A stretch of DNA of 64,000 bases, from sequence record MK509462; one strand, given 5' to 3'. A program made the position numbers and the translations under genes. This stretch comes from Shigella phage MK-13. Below, piece by piece: positions 11,998 to 62,854 of this stretch (positions are counted from its first letter, which is position 1; each line of letters begins with the position of its first letter). Below the pieces are notes generated by a model. The model had not been told where the DNA came from. It did not search any database and saw only the letters and a program-made list of their open reading frames with translations.

Positions 11998-12078
11998 TCA
12001 ATCTCCAGCCTGATGCTATAATGTGTGGGCGGGGGCGTTCCCCGCCTATTTGAAATGATTCTTCTACACGAGGCTGAA

Positions 12079-13068
12079 ATGTCTAATATCACTATCGTTT
12101 CCGACCAGTACGCATGGGAAAACAAGTACCGCCCTGACAACCTGGACGAGATCATCATCCCTCAAGACGTCCGCGCTAAAATCCATGGCTACATTACCAG
12201 TGGCAACGGTAACATCCCGTCTATGCTGTTCTACTCCCCTCAGCCTGGTACTGGCAAGACTACCTCTGCCCTGGCCGTGTGTAATGAAATCGGCTGTAAG
12301 CAACCACTGATGATCAACGCATCCCTGGACAACAGCATCGACGTTATCCGTGACCGCGTGATTCAGTACTCTACTGGTGTGAGTGTATTCGGTGGCCGCA
12401 AAGTCGTTATCCTCGACGAAGTAGAGCGTCTGTCTATGGCGGCACAGGAGTCGCTGAAGGGTATTGTGGAGAAGGTCTCCAAGAACTGTTCATTCATCCT
12501 GACCACCAACGCCAAGCAACGTGTGAACGAACCTCTGCGCTCTCGTTGCCGTGAAATCGACTTTATCTGGAATGAGACCGAGGCTGATGAGGTAAAACTT
12601 CAGTTCATGCGCCGCTGTGCTGAAATCCTTCGCAGCGAAGGTGTTGAGTATGACCCTCCTGTGTTGGCTGCTATTGTCAAACGTCATTTCCCCGATAACC
12701 GCCGCATCATGGGTGCCCTACAGGATAACGTCACCACCTACGGCAAGATCGATGAACGCGCCCTCGCCGTATTGAAATCTGCCGACATGGGTGTGTTGGT
12801 TGATATGCTGAAAGGCAATGACTGGGCTGGCATGAAGCAGTGGGTGACTGACAACCAGAACTACATCACCGAAGACTTCTATTCCCGCTTCTTCCAGTTC
12901 TGTGTACCACAGGATAAAGAGAAGCCGATGCTGGTTCAGAATGAGTCTATCCCTGATCTGGTATGCGTATGTGGTCAGTCTCAGATTGAACACCGTCAGG
13001 TCGGCGATGTCTGGCTGCATGCTGTGTTTTTCCTGACCAACGTCATGCTCAACATCAAGTGGAAGTGA
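12079..13068 (+). CDS. clamp loader large subunit, gp44-like (AAA+)
   Basis: Walker A PQPGTGKTT, DEVE box, SRC motif; T4 gp44-like N-terminus. Confidence 0.9.
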   Translation: MSNITIVSDQYAWENKYRPDNLDEIIIPQDVRAKIHGYITSGNGNIPSMLFYSPQPGTGKTTSALAVCNEIGCKQPLMINASLDNSIDVIRDRVIQYSTGVSVFGGRKVVILDEVERLSMAAQESLKGIVEKVSKNCSFILTTNAKQRVNEPLRSRCREIDFIWNETEADEVKLQFMRRCAEILRSEGVEYDPPVLAAIVKRHFPDNRRIMGALQDNVTTYGKIDERALAVLKSADMGVLVDMLKGNDWAGMKQWVTDNQNYITEDFYSRFFQFCVPQDKEKPMLVQNESIPDLVCVCGQSQIEHRQVGDVWLHAVFFLTNVMLNIKWK

Positions 13069-13072
13069 TACT

Positions 13073-13495
13073 ATGGCCGCCCCTGGATTGTTCGATTACC
13101 TGGCTGCTCTGAACAGCAGCAAAGAAAACCTTCTGCAGTCTGATGACCCAGAAGTGTTGAAAGGATTCGACCCGTTTATGACGCGGCGTGGTTTAGCTCA
13201 GAGCAAAGACACTCTGGTGACTGCACAGCAGATGAACAAGCTGCATGCCGTTACTCCATGGATGCAATGGTCATATGCCTTTCACACCATTCCGGCGCGG
13301 AAACGCTACGACAAATGGTCTAAGAAAGGTCCGATTGATCCTGACGTGAAGTTGCTCTCCGAGTACTTCTACATCAGCATGGAGAAGGCATCCGAGTACG
13401 TCCGTTTCTTGCCGAAGGAAGTCCTGGCCGAGATACGCGAGAAGATGGGACGTACTGAGCTGAACGCCAAAGCGAAACCGCGCAAGGCTAAGTAG
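13073..13495 (+). CDS. clamp loader small subunit, gp62-like
   Basis: Position after gp44 and block ARKRYDKWSKK resembling T4 gp62 RGKRYGKWAKL. Confidence 0.75.
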   Translation: MAAPGLFDYLAALNSSKENLLQSDDPEVLKGFDPFMTRRGLAQSKDTLVTAQQMNKLHAVTPWMQWSYAFHTIPARKRYDKWSKKGPIDPDVKLLSEYFYISMEKASEYVRFLPKEVLAEIREKMGRTELNAKAKPRKAK

Positions 13496-14944: not shown

Positions 14945-16165
14945 ATGAAAGATAAAGCCCTGGACGTCCCGTACTGCGGTGTCCGTGAAGAAAAGATAAA
15001 GTCGGCCAAACCGGTTCTCAGTCCGACCCATACCCGCCTTTCTTACGAATGGATGAGCGAGCGCTATAAGATCCACGTCAAGAAGGACGTCCAGCGTCTT
15101 CCTGCTCCTTGGACGAATAATCCTATACTACGGCAGGTCAAGTTCTGTAACGTCCGGAGAGAGCACGACAGGCAGTCTCTTAACCTGATCAACAACATCG
15201 TCAACAACGATGCTCTGGGTATGGCAGACAAGATGTTTAACTGCGTGCTGTTCCGCATGTTCAACCTCTGGGATCCGATCCAGGCTATCGGCGGCGCGAT
15301 GGCGATCAAAGAATTCGCCAAGATCAACCTTGACGCAACCCGCGAACGACTTCAGAAGTTCGAGGCCGACGGCGGCAAGGTGTTCACCAATGCCTTCAAC
15401 ACAGGCGGCCTGAAGCAATGCCTGGCTTTCCCTGAGCTGGTTGTCAACCACAAAGAGCAGCGCTTCGGTGGGATGATGGTGAACCTGATCTGTAAGGACG
15501 GTTCGACCCAGAACATGGATTATAAGGAAGCCAAGGCTATTGCTGAAGCAGAGCCGGACTTCTACACCATAGAAGGCTGGGAGCCGTACATGCCAATGCG
15601 TGTCATCCGTTCCCTGAAGGCATTCGTCAACAAGTATCCAAATTACTTCCATGACCTACTGCGCCTTGGTACTCCTCTGGAAGTATACCAGCGCATGTAC
15701 GACGACATCGAAGGTCTTGGTCCATTCCTGGCCTATCAGATCTGGGTTGATTTCACGTACATGCCTGGTTATCCGTTCAGTGAGAACCACTTCACGATCG
15801 CCGGACCGGGCTGTCGCGCAGGTATTGATCTGCTGTTCCTGAACAAGGACGGCATGACTCACGAAGAATGCATATTCTGGCTACGGGATAATCAGGACGC
15901 AGTATACTCCCAATATGGGTATGTTCGCGAGCAATTCTGGTCGGCCGAAGAGCCTGTAGACCAATGCATGAACGTTATGCAGCTGGAGAACATGTTCTGT
16001 GAACTGAGCAAGTACACTCGCTGTGTTGAGGCGGTTGGGCGCGGTGAAAAACCTCGGGGCAAGGTCAGCTATGACGGCGGTGGGGAATACAAAAAGCGCT
16101 GTGATGAAGTCGTGCTCAAACGTGGTTCCGTCAATTTGCTGGACCGTTTGAAGAAACCTGAATAA
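14945..16165 (+). CDS. hypothetical protein (406 aa)
   Basis: Long ORF with AGAGGA RBS; no motif recognised. Confidence 0.6.
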   Translation: MKDKALDVPYCGVREEKIKSAKPVLSPTHTRLSYEWMSERYKIHVKKDVQRLPAPWTNNPILRQVKFCNVRREHDRQSLNLINNIVNNDALGMADKMFNCVLFRMFNLWDPIQAIGGAMAIKEFAKINLDATRERLQKFEADGGKVFTNAFNTGGLKQCLAFPELVVNHKEQRFGGMMVNLICKDGSTQNMDYKEAKAIAEAEPDFYTIEGWEPYMPMRVIRSLKAFVNKYPNYFHDLLRLGTPLEVYQRMYDDIEGLGPFLAYQIWVDFTYMPGYPFSENHFTIAGPGCRAGIDLLFLNKDGMTHEECIFWLRDNQDAVYSQYGYVREQFWSAEEPVDQCMNVMQLENMFCELSKYTRCVEAVGRGEKPRGKVSYDGGGEYKKRCDEVVLKRGSVNLLDRLKKPE

Positions 16166-20055: not shown

Positions 20056-20910
20056 ATGTTTCGTTTGAAATTGAACGACCAAGATGTGTTCTACAAACAC
20101 TTCACCTTCCCAGGTGGTGAGGAACATATCAAGATCCAAAAGTCTGGTATCCCTATCGGCCACGTCCAGAACGTGGCGATTGATGCTCACATCAAATCAT
20201 CAGCCGACTTCGTTGAGCTGGCACTGCTGGTTAACGCCGTGCGCGGCCTGGGTAACGTGGACCGTCTGACGACCTTCCATGCGTATATCCCTTACTTCCC
20301 GTATGCTCGCCAGGACCGCCATTGCGACTTCGGCGAGCCTCTGTCCGTGAAGTGGGCGGCTGAGTTCATCAATAGCATGAACTTTGACCGCGTGGCGATC
20401 AAAGACCCTCACAGCCATGTTGTGTCTTCTCTTATCAACAACGTCCATGTGGTCCCGCAAGATTACATCGTGCGGCAGTATCTGGGCTGGTTCATCCGTG
20501 GGAACAACGCTGTGTTGGTAGCCCCTGACGGCGGCGCGGCTAAGAAGACCGAAGCCCTCAGCCTGTCTCTGGATGGCGTTCCTGTTGTCTACGGACACAA
20601 GAACCGTGACGCCAAGACTGGTGAGATCATTGGGGTGAGTATTACAACCCCTGAACTGATCAAAGACCGTTATCTGGTGGTGGTCGATGATATCTGCGAC
20701 GGTGGGCGCACGTTCGTTGAGTTAGGCAAAGAGCTTCAGAAGCACAAGCCCAAACACATGACGCTCTTCGTTACCCATGGCATCTTCAGCAAAGGGCTTT
20801 CCGTGTTCGACGGGATCTACGATGCTGTGTATGCCGACACTGTCTGGTGGGAGAATATCACCGCCGACGGTCTTCCTTTCAAAACTGAAAATACAGGACG
20901 TGTAAAATGA
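20056..20910 (+). CDS. ribose-phosphate pyrophosphokinase (Prs)-like; candidate ADP-ribose pyrophosphokinase
   Basis: Prs signature YFPYARQDR and PRPP-binding loop VVVDDICDGGRT. Confidence 0.85.
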   Translation: MFRLKLNDQDVFYKHFTFPGGEEHIKIQKSGIPIGHVQNVAIDAHIKSSADFVELALLVNAVRGLGNVDRLTTFHAYIPYFPYARQDRHCDFGEPLSVKWAAEFINSMNFDRVAIKDPHSHVVSSLINNVHVVPQDYIVRQYLGWFIRGNNAVLVAPDGGAAKKTEALSLSLDGVPVVYGHKNRDAKTGEIIGVSITTPELIKDRYLVVVDDICDGGRTFVELGKELQKHKPKHMTLFVTHGIFSKGLSVFDGIYDAVYADTVWWENITADGLPFKTENTGRVK

Positions 20911-22571
20911 GCATGCGCCACTTAGACCCAATCCATGCAATCGACTTCTACAAATCAGGGCACATCTATCAGTTCCCTGAAGGCAGCGAGCTGGTGTTCT
21001 CCAACGGAACTCCGCGCTCCAACAAACTGTTCAACTCTCACCTGCCGAAGAACGGCGTGGTGGTCTGGGGCATCCAGGGTTTCATGACTTGGTTCCATGA
21101 ACTGTTTGACGAAGCATTCTTCCAGCGCCCGAAGGCCAAGGTGTTGAAGAAGTATGCCCGTCGCATGAACAAAGTCCTGGGTCCAGGCCGCGTCGGCACA
21201 GAGCATATTGAAGCCCTGCATGACCTCGGCTACCTGCCTATCGAAGTCCGCGCGCTGCCTGAAGGCACCATGTGCCCGTATGGCGTTCCGGTGTATGTGA
21301 TGTTCAACACCCTGCCGGAGTTCTACTGGCTGACCAACTATCTGGAGACTGTGTTCAGCTCTGAGATCTGGAAGCCGATGACGAACGCCACTATCGCTCT
21401 GCATTACAAGGCACTGATGGTGAAAGCTGCCCTCGCTACAGGCGTGTCACCGGACCATTGGTTCATCGACTACCAAGGCCACGACTTCTCCTTCCGTGGC
21501 ATGAGCGGGTGGCATGACGCGGCGTCTTCCGGTTCCGGTCATCTGGTGTTCTTCAAAGGCACCGATACCAACCCTGCCCTGGACTTCGTTGAAGAGTATT
21601 ATGGCGCAGACATCGACGAAGACTATGTCGTTGCTGGCTCCGTTGCGGCTACAGAACACGCCGTGATGTGTATGGGTACGAAGGATGGTGAATTCGAAAC
21701 CTTCCGCCGCCTGGTGCAGGACGTGTATCCTGATGGCATCGTCAGCATCGTGTCTGATGCGTGGGATTACTGGCAGGTCATCGACGACTATCTCCCTCGC
21801 CTGAAAGATATTATCATGGCGCGTAACGGTAAAGTCGTGATCCGCCCTGACTCGGGCGACCCAGTTCATATCGTCGGCGGCTACCGCATTGAGGGGTTCA
21901 AAGACCGCGCCACGCTGAACATCAGCGGCGTGTCTAGCAGCACTGAAGTCATTCACATCGAAGAGACGAACACCTATCACCTGATCACAGGCGAAGGCAC
22001 GATCAACTCTCTGATGGCAGACGACCGTAATATCATCAGCCGTTCTGAAGCAGTCGGCTCTATCCAGCGACTGTGGGAGATCTTTGGCGGTACTCAAACT
22101 GAAACTGGCCACTTCCTGTTGGACGAACACATCGGTCTGATCTACGGTGACTCCATCACCCTGGCGCGTGAAGACCAGATCTTTAGCCGTCTGGCTGGCC
22201 GGAACTTCGCTTCCATCAACGTGGTGTTCGGTATCGGTTCCTACACCTACCAGATGAACACCCGTGACAGTACTGGCACGGCGGTGAAAGCAACGGCTGG
22301 TAAGGTGAACGGTGAATTCCGTGAGATCTTCAAAGAGCCGAAGACCGACAAAGGCGGGACTAAAAAGTCTGCGCGTGGTTTCCTTAAAGTCATTAAAGAC
22401 TCTCAGGGTAAACTAGTGTTGGTTGACGGTATCACCTTTGATCAGGTGCAAGACGCCGACAACCAGCACCAGCTGGTGTATCGTGATGGCAAGTTCTTCA
22501 ACACTCAAACTCTGGAAGATGCGCGTGTCCGCGCCGCTCCTCTGGTAGCAGAACTGGCATCACAAATCTGA
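20907..22571 (+). CDS. nicotinamide phosphoribosyltransferase (Nampt/NadV)-like; candidate nicotinamide ADP-ribose transferase
   Basis: N-terminal DFYKSGHIYQFP matches Nampt DSYKVTHYKQYP block; length 554 aa; start overlaps Prs stop (ATGA). Confidence 0.85.
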   Translation: MSMRHLDPIHAIDFYKSGHIYQFPEGSELVFSNGTPRSNKLFNSHLPKNGVVVWGIQGFMTWFHELFDEAFFQRPKAKVLKKYARRMNKVLGPGRVGTEHIEALHDLGYLPIEVRALPEGTMCPYGVPVYVMFNTLPEFYWLTNYLETVFSSEIWKPMTNATIALHYKALMVKAALATGVSPDHWFIDYQGHDFSFRGMSGWHDAASSGSGHLVFFKGTDTNPALDFVEEYYGADIDEDYVVAGSVAATEHAVMCMGTKDGEFETFRRLVQDVYPDGIVSIVSDAWDYWQVIDDYLPRLKDIIMARNGKVVIRPDSGDPVHIVGGYRIEGFKDRATLNISGVSSSTEVIHIEETNTYHLITGEGTINSLMADDRNIISRSEAVGSIQRLWEIFGGTQTETGHFLLDEHIGLIYGDSITLAREDQIFSRLAGRNFASINVVFGIGSYTYQMNTRDSTGTAVKATAGKVNGEFREIFKEPKTDKGGTKKSARGFLKVIKDSQGKLVLVDGITFDQVQDADNQHQLVYRDGKFFNTQTLEDARVRAAPLVAELASQI

Positions 22572-31075: not shown

Positions 31076-31354
31076 ATGAATCGTACTGAATTTGTTGCCC
31101 ACATTGCTTCGACCCAGAACATCACCAAAGGCGAAGCGGAGAAAGTAGTGGCATCCTTTATCGACGGCGTTAAAACTGCAGTTGCTGCAGGTGCGTCTGT
31201 ACAGCTGGTCGGCTTCGGCGCGTTCGAAGTGAAGCACCAGGAAGCTCGTGAAGGTCGTAACCCTCTGAACGGCCAGACCATTCAGATCGAAGCGAAAAAC
31301 GTTGTGAAATTCAAAGTGGGCGAAGGTCTGAAGAACGCTGCCAACGGCAAGTAA
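31076..31354 (+). CDS. HU/IHF-family DNA-binding protein
   Basis: Near full-length match to bacterial HU: MNRTEF...VQLVGFGAFEVKHQEAREGRNPLNGQTIQIEA. Confidence 0.85.
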   Translation: MNRTEFVAHIASTQNITKGEAEKVVASFIDGVKTAVAAGASVQLVGFGAFEVKHQEAREGRNPLNGQTIQIEAKNVVKFKVGEGLKNAANGK

Positions 31355-31406
31355 TTCTATCTGACGCGCGGCCTGGCTCTGCGACGCAGGGCATGGCAAA
31401 AGAGAA

Positions 31407-31434
31407 AGCCGGAGCATTGTACTCCGGCTTTTTC
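31407..31434 (+). terminator. rho-independent terminator after HU gene
   Basis: agccggagcattgtactccggctt followed by TTTT. Confidence 0.7.
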
Positions 31435-31483: not shown

Positions 31484-33202
31484 GTGACAGCATTCAACCA
31501 ATATACCAAGGCGCTTGATGGCGTCGGACCAGTTAGCATAGACCGCATCAAGTCTCTTGCCACTGAGTTCTTCCCATACGACACCGCCAACCCAGGACAG
31601 ATGGAGTGCATCGTTGAAGCCGTTGATGCCCTTGTGAATAAGAAATTCAAACACGTGATCATCGAGGCTCCGACTGGTGTGGGCAAATCCCTCATTGGCA
31701 CTACCATCCATAACGTGCTTCGCCATCTGGTTCTTGAGCGCAACCCATATGGTCAGTTCCGCACGTCTATCACAACACCGACCAAAGGGTTACAAGATCA
31801 GTATGCGGCTGAAAGGGCAGTGGCGATAGACATCCTGAAGGGCAAGAAGAACTATCGTTGTCATATCAGCCCTGACCTGTATTACAATGCTATCCAGTGC
31901 CGTATGGCATGCCGAGATGGCCACTGTAATAAAAATCGTTGCCCATATGTTCAGGCTCGTCGTCTTTGGACGGACATCTCTTCTCTGCGCTGCACCAACG
32001 CCGCCATGATGGTGGAGATGTGCACGACGATCTGTATGAAGCCCGAAAACCGCGCCGATATGCTGATCCTTGACGAGTGCCATAAAATGCCCTCTACGCT
32101 CCTAGAGCACACGATCATGGAATACAGCATAAAGGCTGTGGAAGGGTTGCTTACGATCCCCGAGGGAGTGCCTATCGTGGAACTCATCAAGGATATCATC
32201 ATCCGCACAGAGAACTATGAATTGGGCAAGCTGTATTCCCTGTCTGGTGAGATGCATGCGATATTTGACGACCTGCATGACAAGGTTGAAGCCCTGCTGG
32301 AAACCCTTGAGGAACTGGTAGAGGACGAGCGCCTGACTGAAGCCCAGGTGATGAAGTTGTCGGACATCATTGACACCCTTCACAACCTCAGCGACTACTG
32401 TGGGATCATGGGGCAGACCAACGCCAGCACCTTCATCGTGCAGGAGAAGGACAAGGGCATGATTCAGTTCAAGCCTGTCATCGCATCTGATGTATCCCAG
32501 TTCGGCCTGTTCCGCAAGGGTGACTACCACGTTCACATGTCGGCGACCATTTGTGGGATTGACTCGTACGCTCGGTCACTGGGTATCCGTGAGGGCGAGT
32601 ACCACAAGATTCAGATCGGAAACCCTATCCCGATTGAGAACCGGAAAGTCAACTACATGCCCATCATGAAGATGACGGCGAACATGGGTGACTATGAGAT
32701 GAAGAAGCTGGCCGAATACGTGGATGAAATCATCGCATTCCACCCTGGGCAGTCTGGCATCATTCACACAGTAAGTTATGACCGCGCCCTGGCTCTACAG
32801 AAGTTCAGTAAGTACCGGAATATGATTCACGTTCCTCGTACTCGTAAGGCTCTAATGGACATCATGGAACACGCGTTCCGGACCAAGAAGCCTTGTGTCA
32901 TCGCCAGTCCGGCTATGGAAGAGGGGTATGACTTCAAAGGCGATTACAGCCGATTTCAGATCTTGATCAAGGTTCCATACGATTACCTTGGTGATCCTCT
33001 GGTGGCTCACGTCAACAGTGTAGACCCATCGGCGTACTTCAGGATGGCGGTACTGCGTATCGTTCAGATGTGCGGGCGTTCGGTCAGGGGCGTGAATGAC
33101 TGGGCTGCGACATACATCCTTGATTCTTCTTTTGAATCACTGATGATGCGCAACCCAGAGTTCTTCCCCGCTTGGTTTACTGATGCCGTGTTCGAGGTTT
33201 AG
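31484..33202 (+). CDS. DinG/XPD-like SF2 helicase with Cys-rich (Fe-S-type) insertion
   Basis: Walker A APTGVGKS, DECH box, eight Cys between them; GTG start with TAGGAGG RBS. Confidence 0.7.
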   Translation: MTAFNQYTKALDGVGPVSIDRIKSLATEFFPYDTANPGQMECIVEAVDALVNKKFKHVIIEAPTGVGKSLIGTTIHNVLRHLVLERNPYGQFRTSITTPTKGLQDQYAAERAVAIDILKGKKNYRCHISPDLYYNAIQCRMACRDGHCNKNRCPYVQARRLWTDISSLRCTNAAMMVEMCTTICMKPENRADMLILDECHKMPSTLLEHTIMEYSIKAVEGLLTIPEGVPIVELIKDIIIRTENYELGKLYSLSGEMHAIFDDLHDKVEALLETLEELVEDERLTEAQVMKLSDIIDTLHNLSDYCGIMGQTNASTFIVQEKDKGMIQFKPVIASDVSQFGLFRKGDYHVHMSATICGIDSYARSLGIREGEYHKIQIGNPIPIENRKVNYMPIMKMTANMGDYEMKKLAEYVDEIIAFHPGQSGIIHTVSYDRALALQKFSKYRNMIHVPRTRKALMDIMEHAFRTKKPCVIASPAMEEGYDFKGDYSRFQILIKVPYDYLGDPLVAHVNSVDPSAYFRMAVLRIVQMCGRSVRGVNDWAATYILDSSFESLMMRNPEFFPAWFTDAVFEV

Positions 33203-33966
33203 TAACCAGCGATAAACGACAGATGGCATTTGACATTCGGCTCCAGGGAAGTAACAGAGACTGTCATGCTATCTGTGTCTTGACTGAAGTCAATGGTGGC
33301 GAGAGGTTTGGTCTGAACATGGTTGTAGACGCTGTAGAACAGATCCTCGCCACGATATCCTACTTTTCCGTCGGTGTCCTGCCAATGACCCAGTGTCTCA
33401 TCGTAGACATGCACTCTGAACTCGATCATATGGAAGAGCGCCTTGGGGATGTCCTTGAGTACGCTGGTGCCAACCACAGGGATCTCAATGGAAGAGTCAT
33501 TGGAGTTCCCTTCATAGACCGAAGCCCATGCAAAGGTAGGATCACCCCCAGCAACCGGGGTACGCTTCCAGTATTGGAATTCGGGGTTGCCTGAAGCGTT
33601 CTTCTGAAGTAGAATGACCTCACCACCCGTGAAGTTCGCGGTGTCGATGTCGCCTCGCTCAAGTTCATCTGCCGGAGACCCAATAAATTTCCAGCCTTCG
33701 CGATCCAGTAAAGACTTATAATAGTCAGTGAACACGTTGCTGTCTTCTGCAGCGTTGATGGCATCTTTGAGGCCTTGGCCTGTTACCATCTCGTTGAGCT
33801 TCAACCACATGTTCTTGACGGCAGACGCTGCTGCGACTTGCCCAACAGTCCCACCTGCAGCATAATCATAGATGATATCTTCTGACTTGATAGCATCATT
33901 GATAGAAAGGAGCAATTGCTCAATCTGCGGGGCGGTGAGACTGAAACGATATGCGCGGGGTGCCAT
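33199..33966 (-). CDS. hypothetical late protein (255 aa), probably virion-associated
   Basis: Minus-strand ORF with GAGGAA RBS and an exact TATAAATA late-promoter motif about 35 nt upstream. Confidence 0.5.
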   Translation of the reverse strand: MAPRAYRFSLTAPQIEQLLLSINDAIKSEDIIYDYAAGGTVGQVAAASAVKNMWLKLNEMVTGQGLKDAINAAEDSNVFTDYYKSLLDREGWKFIGSPADELERGDIDTANFTGGEVILLQKNASGNPEFQYWKRTPVAGGDPTFAWASVYEGNSNDSSIEIPVVGTSVLKDIPKALFHMIEFRVHVYDETLGHWQDTDGKVGYRGEDLFYSVYNHVQTKPLATIDFSQDTDSMTVSVTSLEPNVKCHLSFIAGY

Positions 33967-34001
33967 AGTTTCATTCCTCTTTCTATAAAACCAGTTTGGG
34001 A

Positions 34002-34009
34002 TATTTATA
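34002..34009 (-). promoter_or_regulatory. T4-type late promoter motif TATAAATA (minus strand)
   Basis: Exact TATAAATA on minus strand upstream of 33966 start. Confidence 0.5.
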
Positions 34010-34011
34010 TC

Positions 34012-34539
34012 ATGATAGAAATTTATTCTGACGGGGGTTCTAACCCGAAGACCAACCAGGCCGCAGGATGGGCATTTGTCATCAGGCCAATATCGGGTAT
34101 GCAATGGAAGGTGTTCTTCGGTCACCTGCCTCCCCCGTCCACCAACAACATCGCCGAGTTGTTGGGTGTGACCAACGCATTGAAGCTGCTGTGGGCATTC
34201 TCAGGAAAGGGTGAGCGCAGAATACCAAAGGCAACAATTTGGTCTGACAGTCAATACACCATCAAGAGCGTCACCGAATGGCGAGCGAAGTGGGAGTATC
34301 AGGGTTTCCCAGACAAGAACGTTGAACTCATCAAAGATCTGTTCAGAATCTATGATCTCGTTTGTTCAATTTGTGAAGTTGAACTAAAATGGGTTAAGGG
34401 TCATGCGGGGCACGAAGGTAACGAACTTGCCGATGACTGGGCCACAGCAGCCAAAAACGACAGCAACTTCCTGATTGAGAATGACAAGATCTCAGTGAAG
34501 AAGGTTGTTGGATCTTTTGATGAATTTATCGGTATCTGA
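34012..34539 (+). CDS. rnhA: ribonuclease HI
   Basis: DGG...TNNIAEL...SDSQY...KWVKGHAGHEGNELADDWA matches RNase HI DEDD active-site pattern. Confidence 0.85.
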   Translation: MIEIYSDGGSNPKTNQAAGWAFVIRPISGMQWKVFFGHLPPPSTNNIAELLGVTNALKLLWAFSGKGERRIPKATIWSDSQYTIKSVTEWRAKWEYQGFPDKNVELIKDLFRIYDLVCSICEVELKWVKGHAGHEGNELADDWATAAKNDSNFLIENDKISVKKVVGSFDEFIGI

Positions 34540-34550
34540 GGGTTCCCACA

Positions 34551-35279
34551 ATGGGTATGAATTATGTTGATCGTGGCGAGAATGTCGTCAAATATTTCAC
34601 GGACGAAGATAACGAGCGTGTCATCAGTATCCTTCGTGATTGGATCCCTGCTCGTAAGAAGGCTCTGGCTGAAGGCACCAGGCTTCCAAAGATCCCCAAC
34701 TATGTTGCTCTACAGGTCCAGCGCATCATCACCAAGATGAGCACCCGCTACAACTATCGCGACTATCCCTTCCGTGAAGACATGGTCTCTGAAGCAATCG
34801 TCAACATCCTGCGTTACCTCCACACCTTTGACGTCGACCACATTGGAAAGAAAGGGAAGATCAACTTCTTCTCTTGGGTGACCATGTGTGCGGATCGCTC
34901 ATTTGCTCGTAAACTGAATATCGAAGAAGAACATACGTACATCAAATTGCGCTCATTTGAAGAGGCGGGTGGGTTCGCAGGCCTAGCAGACGATCCCGAC
35001 TTCCAACAAGAGATCTTTGTTGACGCGACAGGGATTGGTATGGACTTCCGTGAACGTATCGGCAACTTTGAGAACAAAAAGGACGCTCAAAGGCAGAAGG
35101 AGCGAGAGAAGGTGGAGGCAGCTCGTCTCGCAGAATCGAATAAAAAGATTGCGAAAGGCATACTTCAATACATGGCGCAGGCTAAGAATACGGTAACAGC
35201 GCAGGCCGAAGACAATTCAGATCAGGACTTCGGCAAAACCCAATTCGATTTGGACGAAACCGAAGGAGAAACAGAATAA
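34551..35279 (+). CDS. late-transcription sigma factor, gp55-like
   Basis: Central region resembles T4 gp55 (ILRDW...NILRYLHTFD vs IIDW...IKGLHNFD); precedes gp47/gp46 as in T4. Confidence 0.7.
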   Translation: MGMNYVDRGENVVKYFTDEDNERVISILRDWIPARKKALAEGTRLPKIPNYVALQVQRIITKMSTRYNYRDYPFREDMVSEAIVNILRYLHTFDVDHIGKKGKINFFSWVTMCADRSFARKLNIEEEHTYIKLRSFEEAGGFAGLADDPDFQQEIFVDATGIGMDFRERIGNFENKKDAQRQKEREKVEAARLAESNKKIAKGILQYMAQAKNTVTAQAEDNSDQDFGKTQFDLDETEGETE

Positions 35280-36394
35280 TGGCGATTGCTAAAATCGGCG
35301 ATCTGCATATCGGGAGCCGTAATGGTTCCCGTTACGTTCGCGACTTCATCAAGAACTACCTCATCAATTATTTCATCCCTGAACTTGTCGCCTCCGACAT
35401 CCATGAGGTGTGGCAGTTTGGTGACACATTTGATGTCCGCAAATTCATGTACGGTCGTGACAAGGACTGGTTGAAAGATGAGCTGACTCCGGCGCTGAAA
35501 GAGGCTGGTATCAAGTGGAATGGCATTGTTGGCAACCACGACATCACCCTGGAAGAGTCCAACCGCATCAACTGGCCATCCTACCTGAACGAACTCGACC
35601 CAGATGTGTACTGCTACTACAGCGAACCGACCGAAGTGATGATCGAGGGTGTCAAGACTCTGCTCCTACCGTGGATCAATAAGGAAAACTACGATGCATC
35701 TATTGCGGCGATACACGCTACGGACGCCAAGTACTGTTTTGCGCATCTGGAGTTGGCGGGGTTCAAAATGTACCAGTCCTCTACTTGTGATCACGGTCAG
35801 ATCGACGTTGCGCTCCTTTCCAAGTTTGACAGGGTCGACACGGGGCATTTCCATACCCGTTCGATGGAAGGTAACATTCAGTATCTTGGGACTCCGTATC
35901 ACCTGAATTGGGAAGACTACAAAGACGGCACCAACCGTGGCTTCTATGTGGACGACATGCGCGGCGGAGAGGTATTCATCCCCAACAGCGAGCACCAGAC
36001 GTTGTTCCGCTATGTGGAGTATGACTACACCAAGCTGTCCTCAGACGATGAGGGTAACTGGATCGACCCGGAATGGCTGAACACAGGCTTGGGTATTGAA
36101 GGACAGATCGTTAAGGTAATCGTACAGAACCGCGACAATGCTAAGCATTATGAAAAGTTCTGTGATGCCATGAAGCGCTGCAAGTGCATTGACTACAACT
36201 TCATCGACCGGACTATCACCGTGGCGGCTGAGAAGGTTGAGGTCACCGAAGAGATGGTGGCAACCGATGCAGTGGAAGTCCTGAAGAAGGATATCCGCGC
36301 CGGGAACAACATCCAGCGCCCTGAAAACGTCTGTAAACTTGCAGAGCACTTCTACAATGCTGCCCAACAACGCCTGAACAAACTGGACGCATAA
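35279..36394 (+). CDS. recombination nuclease subunit gp47-like (Mre11 family)
   Basis: Phosphoesterase motifs GDLH, GDTFD, GNHD, H..H; T4 gp47-like. Confidence 0.85.
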   Translation: MAIAKIGDLHIGSRNGSRYVRDFIKNYLINYFIPELVASDIHEVWQFGDTFDVRKFMYGRDKDWLKDELTPALKEAGIKWNGIVGNHDITLEESNRINWPSYLNELDPDVYCYYSEPTEVMIEGVKTLLLPWINKENYDASIAAIHATDAKYCFAHLELAGFKMYQSSTCDHGQIDVALLSKFDRVDTGHFHTRSMEGNIQYLGTPYHLNWEDYKDGTNRGFYVDDMRGGEVFIPNSEHQTLFRYVEYDYTKLSSDDEGNWIDPEWLNTGLGIEGQIVKVIVQNRDNAKHYEKFCDAMKRCKCIDYNFIDRTITVAAEKVEVTEEMVATDAVEVLKKDIRAGNNIQRPENVCKLAEHFYNAAQQRLNKLDA

Positions 36395-36395
36395 C

Positions 36396-38732
36396 ATGAC
36401 TCAGAGCACAGATATCCTGGCCAAATTTGGCAATCTTTTGAAGGAAGCCGACACTCCGGTTGAGGTCGAAGTCCCATTTGAAGTGCGTGACAACATTACG
36501 CACAAACTGACCTTCCGCAAAGGCCGTGCCAAGAACTTCCGCTCCATCGGTAATCAGTTCATGGAGATTGATTACCAGCGCAACCCGGCTACCCTCGTCA
36601 CGTCTGACGATAACGGCGCGGGTAAATCCACGATGCTGGTGTGGCTGCTGTTCTTCGTACTGTACAACGACACGTACAGCAAGAAGGAGAAGAAGGCAGG
36701 CCTGGTAAACTCACAGAGCCGCAAGGAATGTGTGGGTGAGGTGGAGTTTGCCTGCCGTGGTAGCGAATGGAAGGTTCGCCGTGGCATTAAACCTGACTTT
36801 GTTGAAGTCTACCAGATGGTGGACGGCAAGTGGTTGCAGATCGATAACGAAGCAGCCAAAGCCGACATGAACAAGTACATCGTGAACCTCATCGGCGTGG
36901 ACCAGAAGATGTTTGAGAACTCTCTGGTGCTGGGCAAAGAGAAGTTCATTCCGTTCACGGAGATGTACACCGCCGACCGCCGCGCCATGGTGGAGACTAT
37001 CTGGGACTTGGGCTTCTTCAGCCTGATGAACGAAGATGTCAAGGCGTCCATCAAGAAAGCGAACGAAAAGCTGGACACGATCGCGAATGAATGTGCGTTG
37101 AAGGTTGTTGACCACACCAACAAGAAGACGCAGCTGCAGCAGATAGAGCAATCCAATGCCCTTATCCAACAGCAGTCGGCCGATATCCTTGTACAGCAAC
37201 AGGAAGCCCTGGTATCGCTGGACGCTGACATTGCCGCGCAGAATGAGGAGCGCACCCGTCTCACTGCCGTGGAATTCGAAGCCACTCAGGAAATGAAGAC
37301 GGTGGAAAGCCGCCTGCATGACGAATCCATGGTGGAGATCGAGGCTGTCAAGAAAGACTTTGAAGCCAAGATCCAGGCGGTGAAGGATGCCGCTCAGGAA
37401 AAGGCCGATGATTATGAGCGCATCGAAGTGTCTACTGCGGAGCATGATCTTCAGGTCTTGCGTGACCGCGCCTTTACGGTGGCCGAAAGCAAGAACACCC
37501 TGCTCACCGAGCGCAACGCCAACCTGGACACCCTGAACGCTGCTATCCAGCGCCGCCAACAGGGTGAGAACTTCCGTATCCGTTTCCAAACAGAAATGGA
37601 TGGTCATCAAGCGGCCATCAAGCGCTTCCACGATATGGGGACTTGCCCAACATGCACCCAGCTGGTGTCCGACGATACCAAAGCGCGCATTGAGAGCGAG
37701 TACAGCCCTCAGATACAGGAACTGCAGGCGAAGTTGGATCAGCTGGATAAGGTCACTGCCGATGTCACAACCCTGATTGATGGTCACAAGGCTCAGGACG
37801 ACAAGCTGGTTGCTGACATTGCTGTGTTGGATGCCGAACTGGATGCAATGCGCAAGCAGGCCGACGAAATCGTTGACAACATCAAGCAGCTGCACCGTGA
37901 CATTCAGGGCTTCCATGAAGCGGCCACGATTGAGTGTAATTCGCTGAACCGTGAATGCCAACAGAAGATCCTTGACATCCGCAAGGCGTTGAACGTTCGT
38001 TTTGAAGATATCACTGCGTCGCTGCAACAGACGCGAGAGAATGCCGTCAGCGGGATTAAAGCCGTCGATGATAAGATCGCCGAGCTGAAAGCCCGTCGTG
38101 CTCCTCTCGTGGCGTCCATTGCCGATCTGGAGCGTAAACTGGCTGTAAAGCCGACGCCTACCGCCGACCTGGAGAACTCTATCGCTGCGTTGGAAGGTGA
38201 ACTGGAGGCTCTGTATGAACTCCGTGAAGATGCAGATGAGGAACTCCAGGATCTACAGCACCTGTTATTCTTCCTGAAGGATGACCAGACCAAGGCGCGC
38301 ATCATCGCCCTGTACTTGCCATTCCTCAATAGCAAGATCAACGAGTATCTTGAAGCCCTCAACATGTTCTTGGACATCGTTGTTGACGATACCTTTGAGA
38401 TCACGATGAGCGCAGCAGGCCGCAAGGGGCAGAGCATCTTCTCCCTGTCTACTGGCCAACGCAGCCGCCTGAACCTGGCTGTGACACTGGCTCTGCGCGA
38501 CGTGGCTAACCTCAAGGCATCGGTGCAATGTAACCTGTTTGTCCTGGACGAAATCCTTGAGAACATGAGCGAGCGCGGGGTGCAGGAATCGGTTGAGATG
38601 CTGAAGCATAAGTTCGGCGGGAACAACCTGTTTGTCATCAGTCAGCGTGAGCAGGAGTTCCAAGAGTACTTCCCTCACAACATCCGCTATGGCCTGCGCA
38701 ACGGCCTGACCGAAGTTATCAAGAAGGATTGA
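36396..38732 (+). CDS. recombination ATPase subunit gp46-like (Rad50/SbcC family)
   Basis: Walker A DNGAGKST, long coiled coil with CPTC zinc hook, C-terminal signature and D-loop (LFVLDE). Confidence 0.9.
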   Translation: MTQSTDILAKFGNLLKEADTPVEVEVPFEVRDNITHKLTFRKGRAKNFRSIGNQFMEIDYQRNPATLVTSDDNGAGKSTMLVWLLFFVLYNDTYSKKEKKAGLVNSQSRKECVGEVEFACRGSEWKVRRGIKPDFVEVYQMVDGKWLQIDNEAAKADMNKYIVNLIGVDQKMFENSLVLGKEKFIPFTEMYTADRRAMVETIWDLGFFSLMNEDVKASIKKANEKLDTIANECALKVVDHTNKKTQLQQIEQSNALIQQQSADILVQQQEALVSLDADIAAQNEERTRLTAVEFEATQEMKTVESRLHDESMVEIEAVKKDFEAKIQAVKDAAQEKADDYERIEVSTAEHDLQVLRDRAFTVAESKNTLLTERNANLDTLNAAIQRRQQGENFRIRFQTEMDGHQAAIKRFHDMGTCPTCTQLVSDDTKARIESEYSPQIQELQAKLDQLDKVTADVTTLIDGHKAQDDKLVADIAVLDAELDAMRKQADEIVDNIKQLHRDIQGFHEAATIECNSLNRECQQKILDIRKALNVRFEDITASLQQTRENAVSGIKAVDDKIAELKARRAPLVASIADLERKLAVKPTPTADLENSIAALEGELEALYELREDADEELQDLQHLLFFLKDDQTKARIIALYLPFLNSKINEYLEALNMFLDIVVDDTFEITMSAAGRKGQSIFSLSTGQRSRLNLAVTLALRDVANLKASVQCNLFVLDEILENMSERGVQESVEMLKHKFGGNNLFVISQREQEFQEYFPHNIRYGLRNGLTEVIKKD

Positions 38733-41700: not shown

Positions 41701-43746
41701 ATGTCAAAGCCAAATTTCCTTCAGTTCATGCAGGAAAAGGATCAGTTGGACGAAGCGTTCAACTCCGCTCCGTATGAGCTGACCATGGGCAAGAAGAACG
41801 CAGGCGATGTGTTCTTCACCTTCATCGACGAAGATGAAAAGGAATACCGCATTCAGTTCTATACCCCTCAGGGGCTGGGCAAGAACGTTCGTCAGGTATT
41901 CATCGGCCAGAAGCGCGGCTCTGTCTATCCTGATGCCATCGCTCGCTTCAAGAACCCAATGCGCGTTATTGCTTCCATGATCGAAGCGACCAAGCAGTTC
42001 CTGGCGACCCCTCTTGGCAAGACTATCGATGGCTATGCTGTCAACTTCTCTAAGAAAGCGCTGGAACGCGGGATGACACTGATTCCTAAGATCATCCGCC
42101 AGTCCGGCCTGAAGCAGAAACTCAATGTCATGGACCTGACCTACGCGCCTGTCCCTGACCGTGGTTATGTGTGGCTGGTTCGTAAGGGTAAAGATCCGGC
42201 TCAGGTATTCGACGGTCCGAAGATGCAGGGCATCACTTGGGATGATCCAGACAAGGTTGGTGACGTTCCGGTTCAGAACAACACCCCTGATGTGGGGACT
42301 TCGTCAAACAACCCCGACTGGAACATTTCCGTCATGGCGAAATCCAACGGTATCTTCAGTTCTGTTGTGAAGGTAGTCGGTGCCAACGACGTGACTCTGA
42401 GTTCCAACGATCTGGCCATCATGGTCAAAGACGGCGCAATGGCGAAGATTGCTCGCACCCAAACCATCGCTCAGGTGACTGTGTTCAACAAAGAGTATGT
42501 TGGTCGTGGTGAAGTAGATCGCAAACTCATGGCGGCTTCTGACCGTCAGGGCATGGGTTGGGAACTGAAGTCTGGTGGTAAGATTGTGGCTTATGTTGAA
42601 TTTGGCGTTGGGGCTATACAGTCCAATCCCGACTATGAAGATAAAGGACAATGGAAATACGACAACCGCAATCAGCGCGGTAAACAACCTCAGATGGTGT
42701 ATTCTATCACAAAAGGTCGAAACACTTATTCGGCCATGCTATCTGCTCATTCTTCTGAACCAGGCACGTATGTACTTCATGGCAGCGATGGCAAATCATT
42801 TCGTGGGCCATCTGCCGATCTGATTATTGGGCAAGCTCGTTTGCCGTCTCCCCCTATTGATATGTACAACCAGTTCACACGCGATTCCAAAGAATTCTGG
42901 GCACAGATCGACATCACCGAAGGCGTGAAAGTTCCCAGCAATGGTGAGGTCATCACCAAAACCAAATCCACCTTCACCATACGTTGGAACATGGGATTTC
43001 CTCCATCAGGGCCATACGCTGGGGCAGTGCTAGAAACAACGGTACTGCGGGTGCGTGAAAATGACTACGTGATAAGCAACATTGCGTCCACTAAAAACAA
43101 AACTCTGAATGATTTGAAGTCATATGACTACAGAGGAGATATTAACTCTTTGTTGAAAGAAGAGGGCGAGCGTTATTCTTTGGCCAACTCCCAATTGTCT
43201 ACACTGACTTCTATTTCCTATAACCCAAATAAACTGGGATATGACCTTGTTTCTGTAGGGAGTTACGGGGAAGTCAGGTTCAATGGTCAAGACATCGGCC
43301 TCCCTAGTAATCGGCAGGTTGTGATCAACGCCGTAATGAAGATGAACAATGAATACGAGAAGACTGGCGGTGGTAAGAAGACTGGTGTTGACCTGGCAAC
43401 ATACGCAGGCTCCATCCGCGACAACGCTCCAAAAGGCCGCGACCTGGATTGGCAGATCTATGCAAGCCGCGATGGCCAGACCCTGAACGTGGACTGGGAT
43501 ATCACCTTCCGCCGCAACACAACTGAAGGTGCATATCGCGAGTTCAAAGCTCAGATTGACCGCGCCAACCAGTACCTGCAGACTCTGTACCAGGATGCGA
43601 AGTCCAAGGGTTACAACCCGACTGAACCAAACCTGATGACTCTGGCTCGCGCCCAGCAGTCTGACCAGTGGGCGAAAGACGACGGGGAGAGCGCATACAG
43701 TGAGTATGAGCAGTCCCTGGGCGGCAACATGCAGATTAAAATCTGA
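41701..43746 (+). CDS. large hypothetical protein (681 aa) with capsid-targeting-like N-terminus
   Basis: N-terminus MSKPNFLQFMQE resembles T4 capsid targeting sequence MKTYQEFIAE; located just upstream of internal-head-protein genes. Confidence 0.55.
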   Translation: MSKPNFLQFMQEKDQLDEAFNSAPYELTMGKKNAGDVFFTFIDEDEKEYRIQFYTPQGLGKNVRQVFIGQKRGSVYPDAIARFKNPMRVIASMIEATKQFLATPLGKTIDGYAVNFSKKALERGMTLIPKIIRQSGLKQKLNVMDLTYAPVPDRGYVWLVRKGKDPAQVFDGPKMQGITWDDPDKVGDVPVQNNTPDVGTSSNNPDWNISVMAKSNGIFSSVVKVVGANDVTLSSNDLAIMVKDGAMAKIARTQTIAQVTVFNKEYVGRGEVDRKLMAASDRQGMGWELKSGGKIVAYVEFGVGAIQSNPDYEDKGQWKYDNRNQRGKQPQMVYSITKGRNTYSAMLSAHSSEPGTYVLHGSDGKSFRGPSADLIIGQARLPSPPIDMYNQFTRDSKEFWAQIDITEGVKVPSNGEVITKTKSTFTIRWNMGFPPSGPYAGAVLETTVLRVRENDYVISNIASTKNKTLNDLKSYDYRGDINSLLKEEGERYSLANSQLSTLTSISYNPNKLGYDLVSVGSYGEVRFNGQDIGLPSNRQVVINAVMKMNNEYEKTGGGKKTGVDLATYAGSIRDNAPKGRDLDWQIYASRDGQTLNVDWDITFRRNTTEGAYREFKAQIDRANQYLQTLYQDAKSKGYNPTEPNLMTLARAQQSDQWAKDDGESAYSEYEQSLGGNMQIKI

Positions 43747-46623: not shown

Positions 46624-46908
46624 ATGTCATTAGAAGCATACAACAGAGAGTTTTCAGAAATCAACTATGGTCTAATGTTCGCCAGAGAAAAACGATTTAT
46701 CCAGGCAAGTGAATATTTGGAAAGACATGGGATGGTTTCTGAGTACAAAAATAAATTGAATATGAAAGCCGCTATGGCTTCTGTGGAACTTGGCGCTGAT
46801 TGTGCTGAAGCCCAATCGTATTCCCGTCAAACTGATTACGACCAGGACATGGTGGAAGAGTATAAATCTATCCTTTTCCGTACCGGGTGGATAAATGAAA
46901 TTTCTTGA
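46624..46908 (+). CDS. hypothetical protein (94 aa)
   Basis: ORF with AAGAGG RBS. Confidence 0.4.
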   Translation: MSLEAYNREFSEINYGLMFAREKRFIQASEYLERHGMVSEYKNKLNMKAAMASVELGADCAEAQSYSRQTDYDQDMVEEYKSILFRTGWINEIS

Positions 46909-47953
46909 CGAGCAATTTATCAACAACGTGTCGCCCCGCCTTGACAAGTTCAAGTGGGAGCGCGTTGGTACTGTCGCAAACTTCCGTTGTCCCCTGTGTG
47001 GTGACTCCACGAAGTCTGCTAACAAGCGCCGTGGATACTTCTTCTATGATCGGGATCATGACTGCTTCCGGTTCAAGTGCCACAACTGCAACCAGATGAA
47101 TGGCTGGTCATTTGAGTTCTGGCTGAAGAAGTTCGACGAACGCCTCTCATCCGAGTACAACATGGAGAAGTTCCGTCTGCTGGGTGATACGTCGGGCAGA
47201 CCACTTCCTTCCCTGAAGCCGTTGCCGAAGCTGACACAGACCGCCCGTATTGGCTCAGTGGCGGCAAAACGCGACGAGAGCCTCCTCGGCAATATGCTCC
47301 GGCTTGATCTACTACCGCCTGACCATAAGGCTCGACAGTACGTACAGTGGCGAGGGCTGCCGGAGAGCACTTGGTCCTTACTGTACTACACACAGCGCTT
47401 TCGTGAAGACCTGAAGCTGTTTGAAACAGACCCCGAAAAGCAACTGAAGATCCCTGATGACGAACGGCTGGTGATTCCATTCTGGACGCAAGACGGGCGG
47501 ATGAAGGTCGTTCAGGGGCGTGCATTCGACAAGAACGCGACCCTGCGATACGCGACAGTCAAGCCCAAGGACGAGGACACCAAAGTCTATGGGGAAGACC
47601 GGGTGAACATTCACAAGACCAAGCTGGTGGTGGAAGGTCCGATTGATAGCCTCTTCCTGCCGAATTGTATGGCGTCAGCAGATGCCGACTTGTTGAGCGT
47701 GAAGGGCGACATCTATATCCCTGATAATCAGTACCGGAACCCGCAGGTCTGTGATGGTATTCAGAAGATGATAGATAAAGGTGTCAAGGTCGTGCTGTTC
47801 CCACCGGACGTTCCGTGGAAGGATATCAACGACATGGTCATGCCATCAAAGGGCAACATGCCGATACAAGACCTCCTGAAGCTGATCGCCAAGAACGTCT
47901 ACCAGGGTATGGCCGCTTCATTGCAATTCGCTGAACTGAGGAAAGTGAAATGA
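46895..47953 (+). CDS. DNA primase, gp61-like
   Basis: Zinc ribbon FRCPLCGDS...CHNC and TOPRIM VVEGPIDSLF match T4 gp61. Confidence 0.9.
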   Translation: MKFLDEQFINNVSPRLDKFKWERVGTVANFRCPLCGDSTKSANKRRGYFFYDRDHDCFRFKCHNCNQMNGWSFEFWLKKFDERLSSEYNMEKFRLLGDTSGRPLPSLKPLPKLTQTARIGSVAAKRDESLLGNMLRLDLLPPDHKARQYVQWRGLPESTWSLLYYTQRFREDLKLFETDPEKQLKIPDDERLVIPFWTQDGRMKVVQGRAFDKNATLRYATVKPKDEDTKVYGEDRVNIHKTKLVVEGPIDSLFLPNCMASADADLLSVKGDIYIPDNQYRNPQVCDGIQKMIDKGVKVVLFPPDVPWKDINDMVMPSKGNMPIQDLLKLIAKNVYQGMAASLQFAELRKVK

Positions 47954-62509: not shown

Positions 62510-62516
62510 GTTTATT

Positions 62517-62756: not shown

Positions 62757-62854
62757 ATCAATGTAGTATCGGGGTATAATTACCCCGCTTGTAACAAAAC
62801 TGAAAATACATGTAACAGAATAGCCCTGAGGGGCGGAAACAGAGGAATTAAGAA

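Follow-up and report, generated by a model that had tools for sequence, protein, structure and literature searches.

The locus lies in a 64,000-nucleotide stretch of DNA from Shigella phage MK-13 (sequence record MK509462), the whole of which is referred to here as the window. Over the region of interest the window is 99.1% identical to Shigella phage Gloob and 98.2% identical to Ag3, which identifies it as an already sequenced Shigella/Salmonella phage (Agtrevirus, Ackermannviridae), and DNA-level matches to the region occur in 243 phage records. The region is a conserved block of the Agtrevirus genome consisting of a helicase gene, a late gene and an RNase HI gene, and the helicase, the convergent gene and the RNase HI of the original prediction were all found where it had placed them (Table 1). 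The HU-type protein encoded next to the block is 100% identical to Ag3 gp113, and TTTTTCGTT follows the hairpin on the plus strand.

Table 1. Features of the helicase–RNase HI region and T4-type genes elsewhere in the window
Feature	Position	Strand	Remarks
UvsW	9112-10617		T4-type gene
gp45/44/62	11329-13492		T4-type genes
HU-type DNA-binding protein gene	31076..31354	+	Directly 5′ of helicase gene; PF00216, E = 5.9e-30
GC-rich hairpin, terminator-like	31405..31431		Strand not assigned; between HU gene and helicase gene; 12-pair stem in scan
SF2 helicase, XPD/Rad3/DinG family (phage clade phrog_2488)	31484..33202	+	572 aa
Walker A / motif I	31667..31690	+	APTGVGKS, aa 62-69
Four-Cys module	31859..31942	+	C126-X12-C139-X8-C148-X4-C153, between Walker A and DECH; probable [4Fe-4S] site
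Walker B / motif II	32072..32083	+	DECH, aa 197-200
Mainly helical insertion	32111..32518	+	aa ~210-345, between motifs II and III; position of XPD/DinG arch domain
Helicase_C_2 domain	32873..33178	+	aa 464-565; PF13307, 47.1 bits (cut-off 25.3)
Late gene, function unassigned	33199..33966	-	255 aa, ATG start; phrog_3833, E = 1.3e-160
T4-type late promoter motif TATAAATA	34002..34009	-	36 nt upstream of ATG at 33966
Type 1 RNase H (RNase HI)	34012..34539	+	175 aa, ATG 34012; PF00075, phrog_531
gp55/47/46	34551-38732		T4-type genes
Primase	46895-47950		T4-type gene
gp33 and gp32	62234-63883		T4-type genes

The helicase ORF starts with GTG, 6 nt 3′ of an AGGAGG ribosome-binding site, and its match to phrog_2488 (E = 7.9e-260) excludes a chance pattern. 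SF2 motifs, including Walker A and a DEAH-type Walker B, could be readily located, and their key residues are invariant in an alignment of 40 family members: P63, G65, G67 and K68 in Walker A, D197, E198 and H200 in the DECH box (C199 is present in 38 of the 40), and Q528, G531, R532, R535 and G536 in motif VI (QMCGRSVRG, aa 528–536), which falls within Helicase_C_2. A SATICG motif is found at aa 353–358. Eight cysteines (126, 139, 143, 148, 153, 170, 180 and 184) lie between Walker A and DECH, so that the 572-aa helicase with Walker A, DECH box and intervening cysteines described beforehand was recovered in full. In the AF2 model, the insertion between motifs II and III is predicted to form long helices (226–241, 255–279 and 286–311) plus a beta hairpin, and the DinG profile alignment extends across it; the predicted protein has both an arch-type insertion in the first RecA-like domain and the overall fold of the XPD/DinG family.

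Profile searches gave DinG as the best match and XPD/Rad3/FANCJ as the next, with the phage proteins forming a separate clade, phrog_2488. Among PDB sequences the best match was E. coli DinG (phmmer E = 4.3e-6; family profile E = 5.6e-20), again followed by XPD/Rad3/FANCJ, and E. coli DinG was also the top Foldseek match of the predicted structure. These profile matches, together with four invariant cysteines, support the DinG/XPD Fe–S family placement first proposed. Scores stayed well under the NCBIfam equivalog cut-offs for DinG (65 versus 598 bits) and YoaA (57.3 versus 680), and under the NCBIfam cut-offs for dinG_rel (38.6 versus 548) and rad3 (TIGR00604; 24.7 versus 247). The family-specific N-terminal model Pfam DEAD_2 (PF06733) gave no match in the helicase at E ≤ 0.01, and it was present in 1 of the 120 helicase homologs listed. 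The helicase belongs to a phage-specific clade and is not an ortholog of bacterial DinG/YoaA or of archaeal/eukaryotic XPD.

For the RNase HI gene, the mechanical ORF spans 33916..34539, and the domain begins at the ATG given in Table 1. The protein matched the RNase_H fold model PF00075 with 88.9 bits (cut-off 25.8; E = 4.6e-25) and phrog_531 with E = 3e-59. In a full-length alignment with E. coli RNase HI, residues D7, E49, D79, H131 and D141 fall on D10, E48, D70, H124 and D134, giving the DEDD(+H) active site. These sequence comparisons make the 175-aa protein a type 1 RNase H whose active site is complete, which bears out its earlier description as a canonical RNase HI. It scored 76.8 bits against the bacterial rnhA equivalog (NF001236; cut-off 160) and belongs to a divergent phage lineage, phrog_531. 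A sliding-clamp-binding motif considered in its C-terminal tail (…GSFDEFIGI) was dropped: the homologs from Vibrio K474 and YC end in unrelated tails, and Ag3 gp43, gp33 and gp55 have no C-terminal motif in common.

The mechanical ORF of the minus-strand gene between the two (33199..34125) begins with GTG. The ATG start is more likely, because the resulting 255 aa is the length of nearly all homologs; the stop of the gene overlaps that of the helicase. Exact matches to TATAAATA number only two in the 64-kb window, one being that at 34002..34009, and on this sequence evidence the gene reads as a late gene preceded by a TATAAATA promoter. The gene for the late sigma factor gp55 adjoins the block carrying this motif. 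No Pfam or NCBIfam matches were obtained for the product, and some records label it "putative structural protein". Its AF2 model has low overall confidence (pLDDT 62) but a confident C-terminal beta sandwich, and the top Foldseek match, the sole suggestive one, was T4 gp9 (1qex; E = 2.5e-7, TM 0.34); given this weak fold likeness, the product is possibly a gp9-like baseplate protein.

The helicase occurs in 496 phage records, where it is annotated as helicase, dinG or Rad3-related, and is a core gene of Ackermannviridae. The original prediction had called an Fe–S helicase an unusual addition; such a helicase is indeed absent from T4, but "unusual" overstates the case for a core gene of this family, and the protein looks more like a substitute for Dda than a supplement. 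Replication modules of haloviruses, Rhizobium phages and Lak megaphages also contain homologs, another occurs in Delftia phage PhiW-14, and in Rhizobium phage TM40 the gene adjoins those for primase, ligase and Pol A; the helicase is thus part of the replication module in phage families that are unrelated to one another. Vibrio phages (46% and 33% identity) retain the gene order helicase, minus-strand gene, RNase H, gp55, gp47, gp46, whereas in Acinetobacter, Rhizobium and halovirus carriers no RNase H gene lies within 5–6 kb of the helicase gene. Helicase and RNase HI had been presented as a pair; with a late gene on the opposite strand between them and the linkage lost in distant carriers, they are not a transcription unit. 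Their adjacency would instead reflect family synteny of a replication module, not an operon, and physical pairing of the two proteins would not be required.

Ag3 contains gp41, gp59, gp61, gp43, gp44/62/45, gp32, UvsW/X/Y, gp46/47 and ligase. Among these, gp41 is a DnaB-type helicase, gp59 its loader and gp61 the primase. In phmmer searches with T4 Dda and with T4 Rnh, whose gene carries the annotation 5′–3′ exonuclease, against all ORFs of at least 60 aa from the window and from all but about 1.3 kb of Ag3, the best E values were 0.57 and 1.2, respectively, the latter for an unrelated ORF; gp61, gp32, dexA and gp33 were recovered as positive controls, whereas the genuine gp59 came close to being missed (E = 2.3). 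A Pfam scan of 20 unannotated Ag3 proteins gave no Dda-type or FEN domain, and no homolog of T4 Rnh was detected in the window or Ag3. An annotated "exonuclease" adjoining UvsW was considered as a FEN RNase H and rejected, being a PD-(D/E)XK nuclease. The contrast with T4 drawn at the outset is thus correct, in that no homolog of T4 Dda or of T4 Rnh can be detected in this phage lineage. Both rnh and dda appear in the T4 core-genome table, some entries of which are open to substitution or missing from some lineages (PMC2993671).

The explanation that we favor, and consider probable, is a conserved Agtrevirus block that contributes an XPD/DinG-type accessory 5′–3′ helicase and an RNase HI removing primers and R-loops. 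Because gp41/gp59/gp61 and UvsW are kept while neither Dda nor a FEN-type RNase H is detectable, the helicase would most likely serve as the accessory 5′–3′ helicase of the T4-type replication and recombination machinery. Judging from E. coli DinG and T4 Dda, it may free the path of advancing forks from R-loops, D-loops or bound proteins. RNase HI would most likely remove Okazaki RNA primers and the RNA of R-loops, after which host Pol I or ligase-coupled gap filling could finish the process. For DinG, R-loop unwinding and replication across transcription units have been proposed, in work that also defined the Fe–S helicase family (PMC3378879). In the literature searched, no experiment on any member of the phage helicase clade was found, and a search for biochemical or transcriptomic studies of these genes in Ackermannviridae gave genome descriptions only.

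It is also conceivable, though we lean against it, that the helicase is chiefly a recombination and repair enzyme, acting on D-loops, forks and damaged DNA with UvsX/UvsY, gp46/47 and a RuvC-like resolvase rather than removing R-loops and roadblocks, and that nothing ties it functionally to RNase HI, the two genes being adjacent only through inherited gene order. The position of the block directly upstream of gp55–gp47–gp46 agrees with such a role, as do the repair functions of XPD, Rad3 and FANCJ (PMC3378879), and the opposite-strand late gene separating the two genes and the loss of RNase H linkage in distant carriers fit the absence of a functional link. The TM40 helicase gene, however, stands among primase, ligase and polymerase, not recombination genes; moreover, replication and recombination are coupled in T4, so that the roles are not exclusive, and nothing discriminates between them.

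Whether the helicase carries a cluster turns on its four-cysteine module. One criterion of the Fe–S helicase family is a set of four conserved cysteines that lie between Walker A and Walker B (PMC3378879), and the phage protein has them in C126, C139, C148 and C153. Each is present in 40 of 40 family members, with a module span of 27–32 residues, and all four are still kept in homologs at 28–30% identity, one of which is a halovirus protein. C148 and C153 align with C199 and C205 of the E. coli DinG "CPF/CPY" motif, which are known cluster ligands. From this conservation, the four invariant cysteines probably hold a [4Fe-4S] cluster at the position usual for the family. That they bind zinc or merely stabilize the fold, in a DinG-like helicase lacking an Fe–S cluster as in CasDinG and S. 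aureus DinG, appears unlikely. Such a reading would account for the unusual shortness of the module, which at 28 residues is much shorter than that of E. coli DinG (its first ligand, C120, lies about 86 residues from C205), and for the offset of the second invariant cysteine, C139, from DinG C194 in the alignment. CasDinG and S. aureus DinG, which we take to be relatives without a cluster, are moreover among the structural matches of the helicase. Against it, all four cysteines are invariant although the family has diverged to about 30% identity, the last lies in the hallmark C-P-Y/F motif and aligns with DinG C205 and FANCJ C350, and CxxC pairs such as characterize zinc ribbons are absent.

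That the protein is instead the phage's replicative helicase, or belongs to the thymidine hypermodification pathway, is very improbable. Its status as a core gene in a family whose thymidine is hypermodified, with genes for a 5-hmdU DNA kinase and an amino acid:DNA transferase, and a homolog in PhiW-14 speak for such a reading, but a gp41 DnaB-type helicase, a gp59 loader and a gp61 primase are all present, and the helicase is also found in replication modules of haloviruses, Rhizobium phages and Lak megaphages.

Returning to the accessory role, a bolder and only tentative version, which we would not bet on, is that a minimal-cluster XPD/DinG helicase with its 28-residue four-cysteine module replaced Dda while a type 1 RNase H replaced the FEN-type Rnh, the two together forming a dedicated pathway that clears R-loops and primers from hypermodified phage DNA, and that the Fe–S cluster would make replication dependent on host iron–sulfur assembly.

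The finding itself is not new, since the phage genome is published and the genes are already annotated as DNA helicase, dinG, Rad3-related and ribonuclease HI; its discovery value is small, and its value is comparative and modest. An entire phage family with a T4-type replisome, the Ackermannviridae, appears to rely on a probable Fe–S XPD/DinG-type helicase and a type 1 RNase H in place of the Dda and FEN nuclease of T4. If the Fe–S cluster is required, phage replication would be linked to host iron–sulfur metabolism, and an Fe–S helicase of only 572 aa, if well expressed, could serve as a convenient model enzyme.

Among known systems, T4 Dda, an SF1B 5′–3′ accessory helicase, is the counterpart for the niche proposed for the phage helicase, that of a non-replicative 5′–3′ helicase in a T4-type replisome, but it belongs to an unrelated superfamily, and similarity is limited to the P-loop (E = 3.5). 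Likewise, T4 RNase H (rnh), a FEN-family 5′–3′ exonuclease, presumably performs the same task as the phage RNase HI, Okazaki primer removal, with a different fold and mechanism. E. coli RNase HI has the same catalytic D, E, D, H and D as the phage enzyme, which differs in a C-terminal extension of about 25 residues, for which phage homologs show no conservation. Unlike archaeal XPD, yeast Rad3 and human XPD and FANCJ, the phage helicase has neither a DEAD_2 match nor a TFIIH-type context. With E. coli DinG (PDB 6fwr/6fws) and its paralog YoaA it has in common the SF2 XPD-type architecture, and the C-x4/5-C-P-Y/F part of the DinG cluster site aligns; identity to DinG is only 16–18%, however, the phage protein has 572 aa against 716, and the phage cysteine module is the more compact, with the second ligand position shifted.

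The helicase carries the Walker A motif, DECH box and Cys-rich insert of the original prediction, with eight cysteines lying between APTGVGKS and DECH. Pfam matches were to Helicase_C_2, ResIII and DEAD, and the PHROGs assignment was phrog_2488 (E 7.9e-260). As a single sequence searched against PDB sequences, the protein matched E. coli DinG best (4.3e-6); a profile built from 40 family members and run against PDB sequences returned DinG (5.6e-20), F. magna DinG (1.6e-18), T. acidophilum XPD (6e-15), Rad3 (1e-13), human XPD (1e-11) and FANCJ (1e-10). The top NCBIfam models were DinG (65 bits) and YoaA (57 bits), and the DinG, YoaA and rad3 scores all fell an order of magnitude under the curated cut-offs. 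An AlphaFold2 model from the 40-sequence alignment was confident (pLDDT 89.3, pTM 0.88) and contained a largely helical insertion at ~aa 210–345, between motifs II and III, the position occupied by the arch domain in XPD and DinG. Foldseek against the PDB placed E. coli DinG first (E 3.6e-26, TM 0.67), and the 41 hits at ranks 2–42 were all DinG, XPD, Rad3, CasDinG or Hna. Based on the family matches and the sub-cut-off NCBIfam scores, the protein is a member of the XPD/Rad3/DinG family and an ortholog of no characterized member; the DinG/XPD-like assignment thus holds for the family, but there is no clean choice between DinG and XPD.

Features of the helicase/RNase HI block
Feature	Position	Strand	Remarks
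Helicase ORF	31484..33202	+	572 aa; GTG start preceded by AGGAGG ribosome-binding site
APTGVGKS	aa 62-69		helicase
DECH	aa 197-200		helicase
TATAAATA, T4 late-promoter motif	34002-34009	-	exact match
RNase HI	ATG 34012 to 34539	+	175 aa; RNase H domain starts at ATG 34012

In the 40-sequence alignment, whose members are 35–84% identical to the query, half of the cysteines are invariant (C126, C139, C148 and C153) and the others variable (C143, C170, C180 and C184), and the first-to-fourth distance is 27–32 residues in all 40 members. Four Cys are retained in homologs from a Rhizobium phage (30% identity) and a halovirus (28%), but the second does not fall in one alignment column throughout. 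Conservation of four cysteines between the Walker A and Walker B motifs defines the Fe–S helicase family (PMC3378879). C148 and C153 align with C199 and C205 of E. coli DinG, the latter lying in a C-P-Y/F motif common to DinG and FANCJ. A zinc site is possible, given that the module of the phage protein is far more compact than that of DinG and that its second invariant cysteine, C139, is four residues off DinG C194. Taken together, the invariant cysteines, the alignment to DinG and the family definition make a putative [4Fe-4S] site the best reading of the module.

The second enzyme proved to be the canonical RNase HI expected: the whole catalytic domain aligns with E. coli RNase HI, and the active-site residues D10, E48, D70, H124 and D134 of the latter are matched by D7, E49, D79, H131 and D141, so all five are intact. 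The C-terminal extension past the domain (~25 residues) is without conservation in Vibrio phage homologs, and a shared clamp-binding motif was not found in it. In the close relative Ag3 (Ackermannviridae, Aglimvirinae, Agtrevirus), the RefSeq RNase H (sequence L001, 22616–23056) begins at an internal Met, giving 146 aa and costing the first catalytic Asp, D7; relative to that annotation, the DEDD site is complete again in the 175-aa ORF. In the Vibrio K474 record, the RNase H gene is over-extended to 232 aa and overlaps the divergent gene.

The T4-type replisome setting was upheld by genes for UvsW, gp45, gp44/62, gp55, gp47, gp46, gp61, gp33 and gp32 in the window. Ag3 has UvsW, UvsX and UvsY, gp46/47, a RuvC-like resolvase and ligase, alongside gp41, the gp59 loader, gp61, gp43, gp44/62, gp45 and gp32. 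Given this inventory, the putative Fe–S helicase is not the replicative helicase. Neither Dda nor a FEN-type RNase H was detectable: the Ag3 annotation has no Dda and no rnh, and phmmer queries with T4 Dda and T4 Rnh against every ORF of ≥60 aa in the window and in Ag3 (all but ~1.3 kb of it) reached best E values of only 0.57 and 1.2, respectively. Orthologs of the controls T4 gp61, gp32, DexA and gp33 were recovered; gp59 was only marginal, which limits this absence test. Nor did Pfam scans turn up a Dda-type or FEN domain in 20 unannotated Ag3 proteins. An "exonuclease" beside UvsW was rejected as a FEN candidate, being a PD-(D/E)XK nuclease. Both rnh and dda are in the core-genome table of a review of T4 relatives, which includes genes substitutable or missing in some lineages (PMC2993671).

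The minus-strand middle gene terminates at 33199, so its stop overlaps that of the helicase gene. Nearly all homologs are 255 aa, a length that fits a start at ATG 33966, preceded by the ribosome-binding site GAGGAA, better than the mechanical GTG 34125. Only two exact copies of TATAAATA occur within the 64 kb window, and the gp55 late sigma gene adjoins the TATAAATA/RNase HI block. The middle gene is without Pfam or NCBIfam match and belongs to phrog_3833, a PHROGs family with no assigned function. Its model was weak overall (pLDDT 62), with a confident C-terminal beta sandwich; the best structural match of this low-confidence model was T4 baseplate protein gp9 (E 2.5e-7, TM 0.34); baseplate and tailspike N-terminal modules ranked next. 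Several records label homologs "putative structural protein." The fold match, the late promoter and these labels make a gp9-like late structural protein a plausible, if tentative, identity. The product may serve in the baseplate or in tailspike attachment, encoded inside an early/middle gene block. At the end of gp55 (window 35230–35279), the C-terminal tail diverges from Ag3 past ...GKTQF, with DLDETEGETE in the window and 31 different residues in Ag3, because of a 50-nt length difference between the genomes. The C-terminus of T4 gp55 binds the sliding clamp, and by analogy the tail difference may matter.

Over its full length, 31484–34539 is 99.1% identical to Shigella phage vB_SboS_Gloob and 98.2% to Ag3, with lower-identity matches in 240 further phage records, chiefly Salmonella, Klebsiella, Escherichia and Dickeya phages. 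The three genes of the block are labelled in the matching records as "DNA helicase / ATP-dependent helicase," "hypothetical protein" and "RNase H / ribonuclease HI," respectively, and the gene-function table of a Vi01-like phage comparison has ribonuclease, putative ATP-dependent helicase and DNA-binding protein in succession (PMC10892097). The helicase/RNase HI finding is a correct reading of genes already known and annotated; its small point of interest is the compact probable Fe–S module and the apparent replacement of Dda and Rnh. Directly upstream of the helicase gene, window 31076–31431 contains an HU-type DNA-binding protein gene (PF00216, E 5.9e-30) and, after it, a strong GC-rich hairpin.

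By tblastn, the helicase was found in 496 phage records, with carriers in Ackermannviridae, many Vibrio phages, Aeromonas, Acinetobacter, Rhizobium and Agrobacterium phages, haloviruses (HF1, HRTV), jumbo phages and Lak megaphages, under annotations including "dinG" and "Rad3-related DNA helicase." Two Vibrio phages, K474 (46% identity) and YC (33%), share the gene order helicase / small gene / minus-strand gene / RNase H / gp55 / gp47 / gp46. The RNase H gene is 4.6 kb from the helicase gene in Aeromonas phage TSW001, and none lies within 5–6 kb of it in halovirus HRTV-16, Acinetobacter phage SH-Ab 15599 or Rhizobium phage TM40, whose helicase gene has primase, ligase and Pol A as neighbors. 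As linkage is kept in Vibrio phages and lost in distant carriers, the adjacency is family synteny in a replication module and no conserved two-gene unit.

Elsewhere, there are genes for a 5-hmdU DNA kinase (PF18723, E 8.5e-82), for an amino acid:DNA transferase (PF18724) and for a PLP-dependent enzyme, at window 14945–16162 and in Ag3 sequences L004 (7623–8849) and L003 (46542–47798). Given these three genes, the phage DNA probably carries hypermodified thymidine; if so, the helicase and RNase HI must act on such DNA. Window 20056–22568 has an extra 863 bases (~20722–21584) relative to Ag3, and the 547-aa Ag3 "nicotinamide phosphoribosyl transferase" matches two window ORFs, one ending at ~20906 and the second starting at ~20916; from this two-piece match, there seems to have been a gene-fusing deletion in Ag3 or an insertion in the window. 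The homolog of Ag3 gp096 (573 aa; weak T4SS-DNA_transf match) is a locally variable gene, its C-terminal half (window 42925–43743) only 58% identical to Ag3 in surroundings of 97–100% identity.

No biochemistry of any phage member of the helicase clade was found in the literature searched. By analogy with its relatives, the helicase would have 5'-3' polarity and fill an accessory-helicase niche, clearing R-loops, D-loops or protein blocks in the way put forward for DinG (PMC3378879). RNase HI would degrade primer RNA and R-loop RNA. A precedent for a replisome-linked Fe–S helicase is E. coli YoaA, whose binding partner is chi, a clamp-loader subunit.
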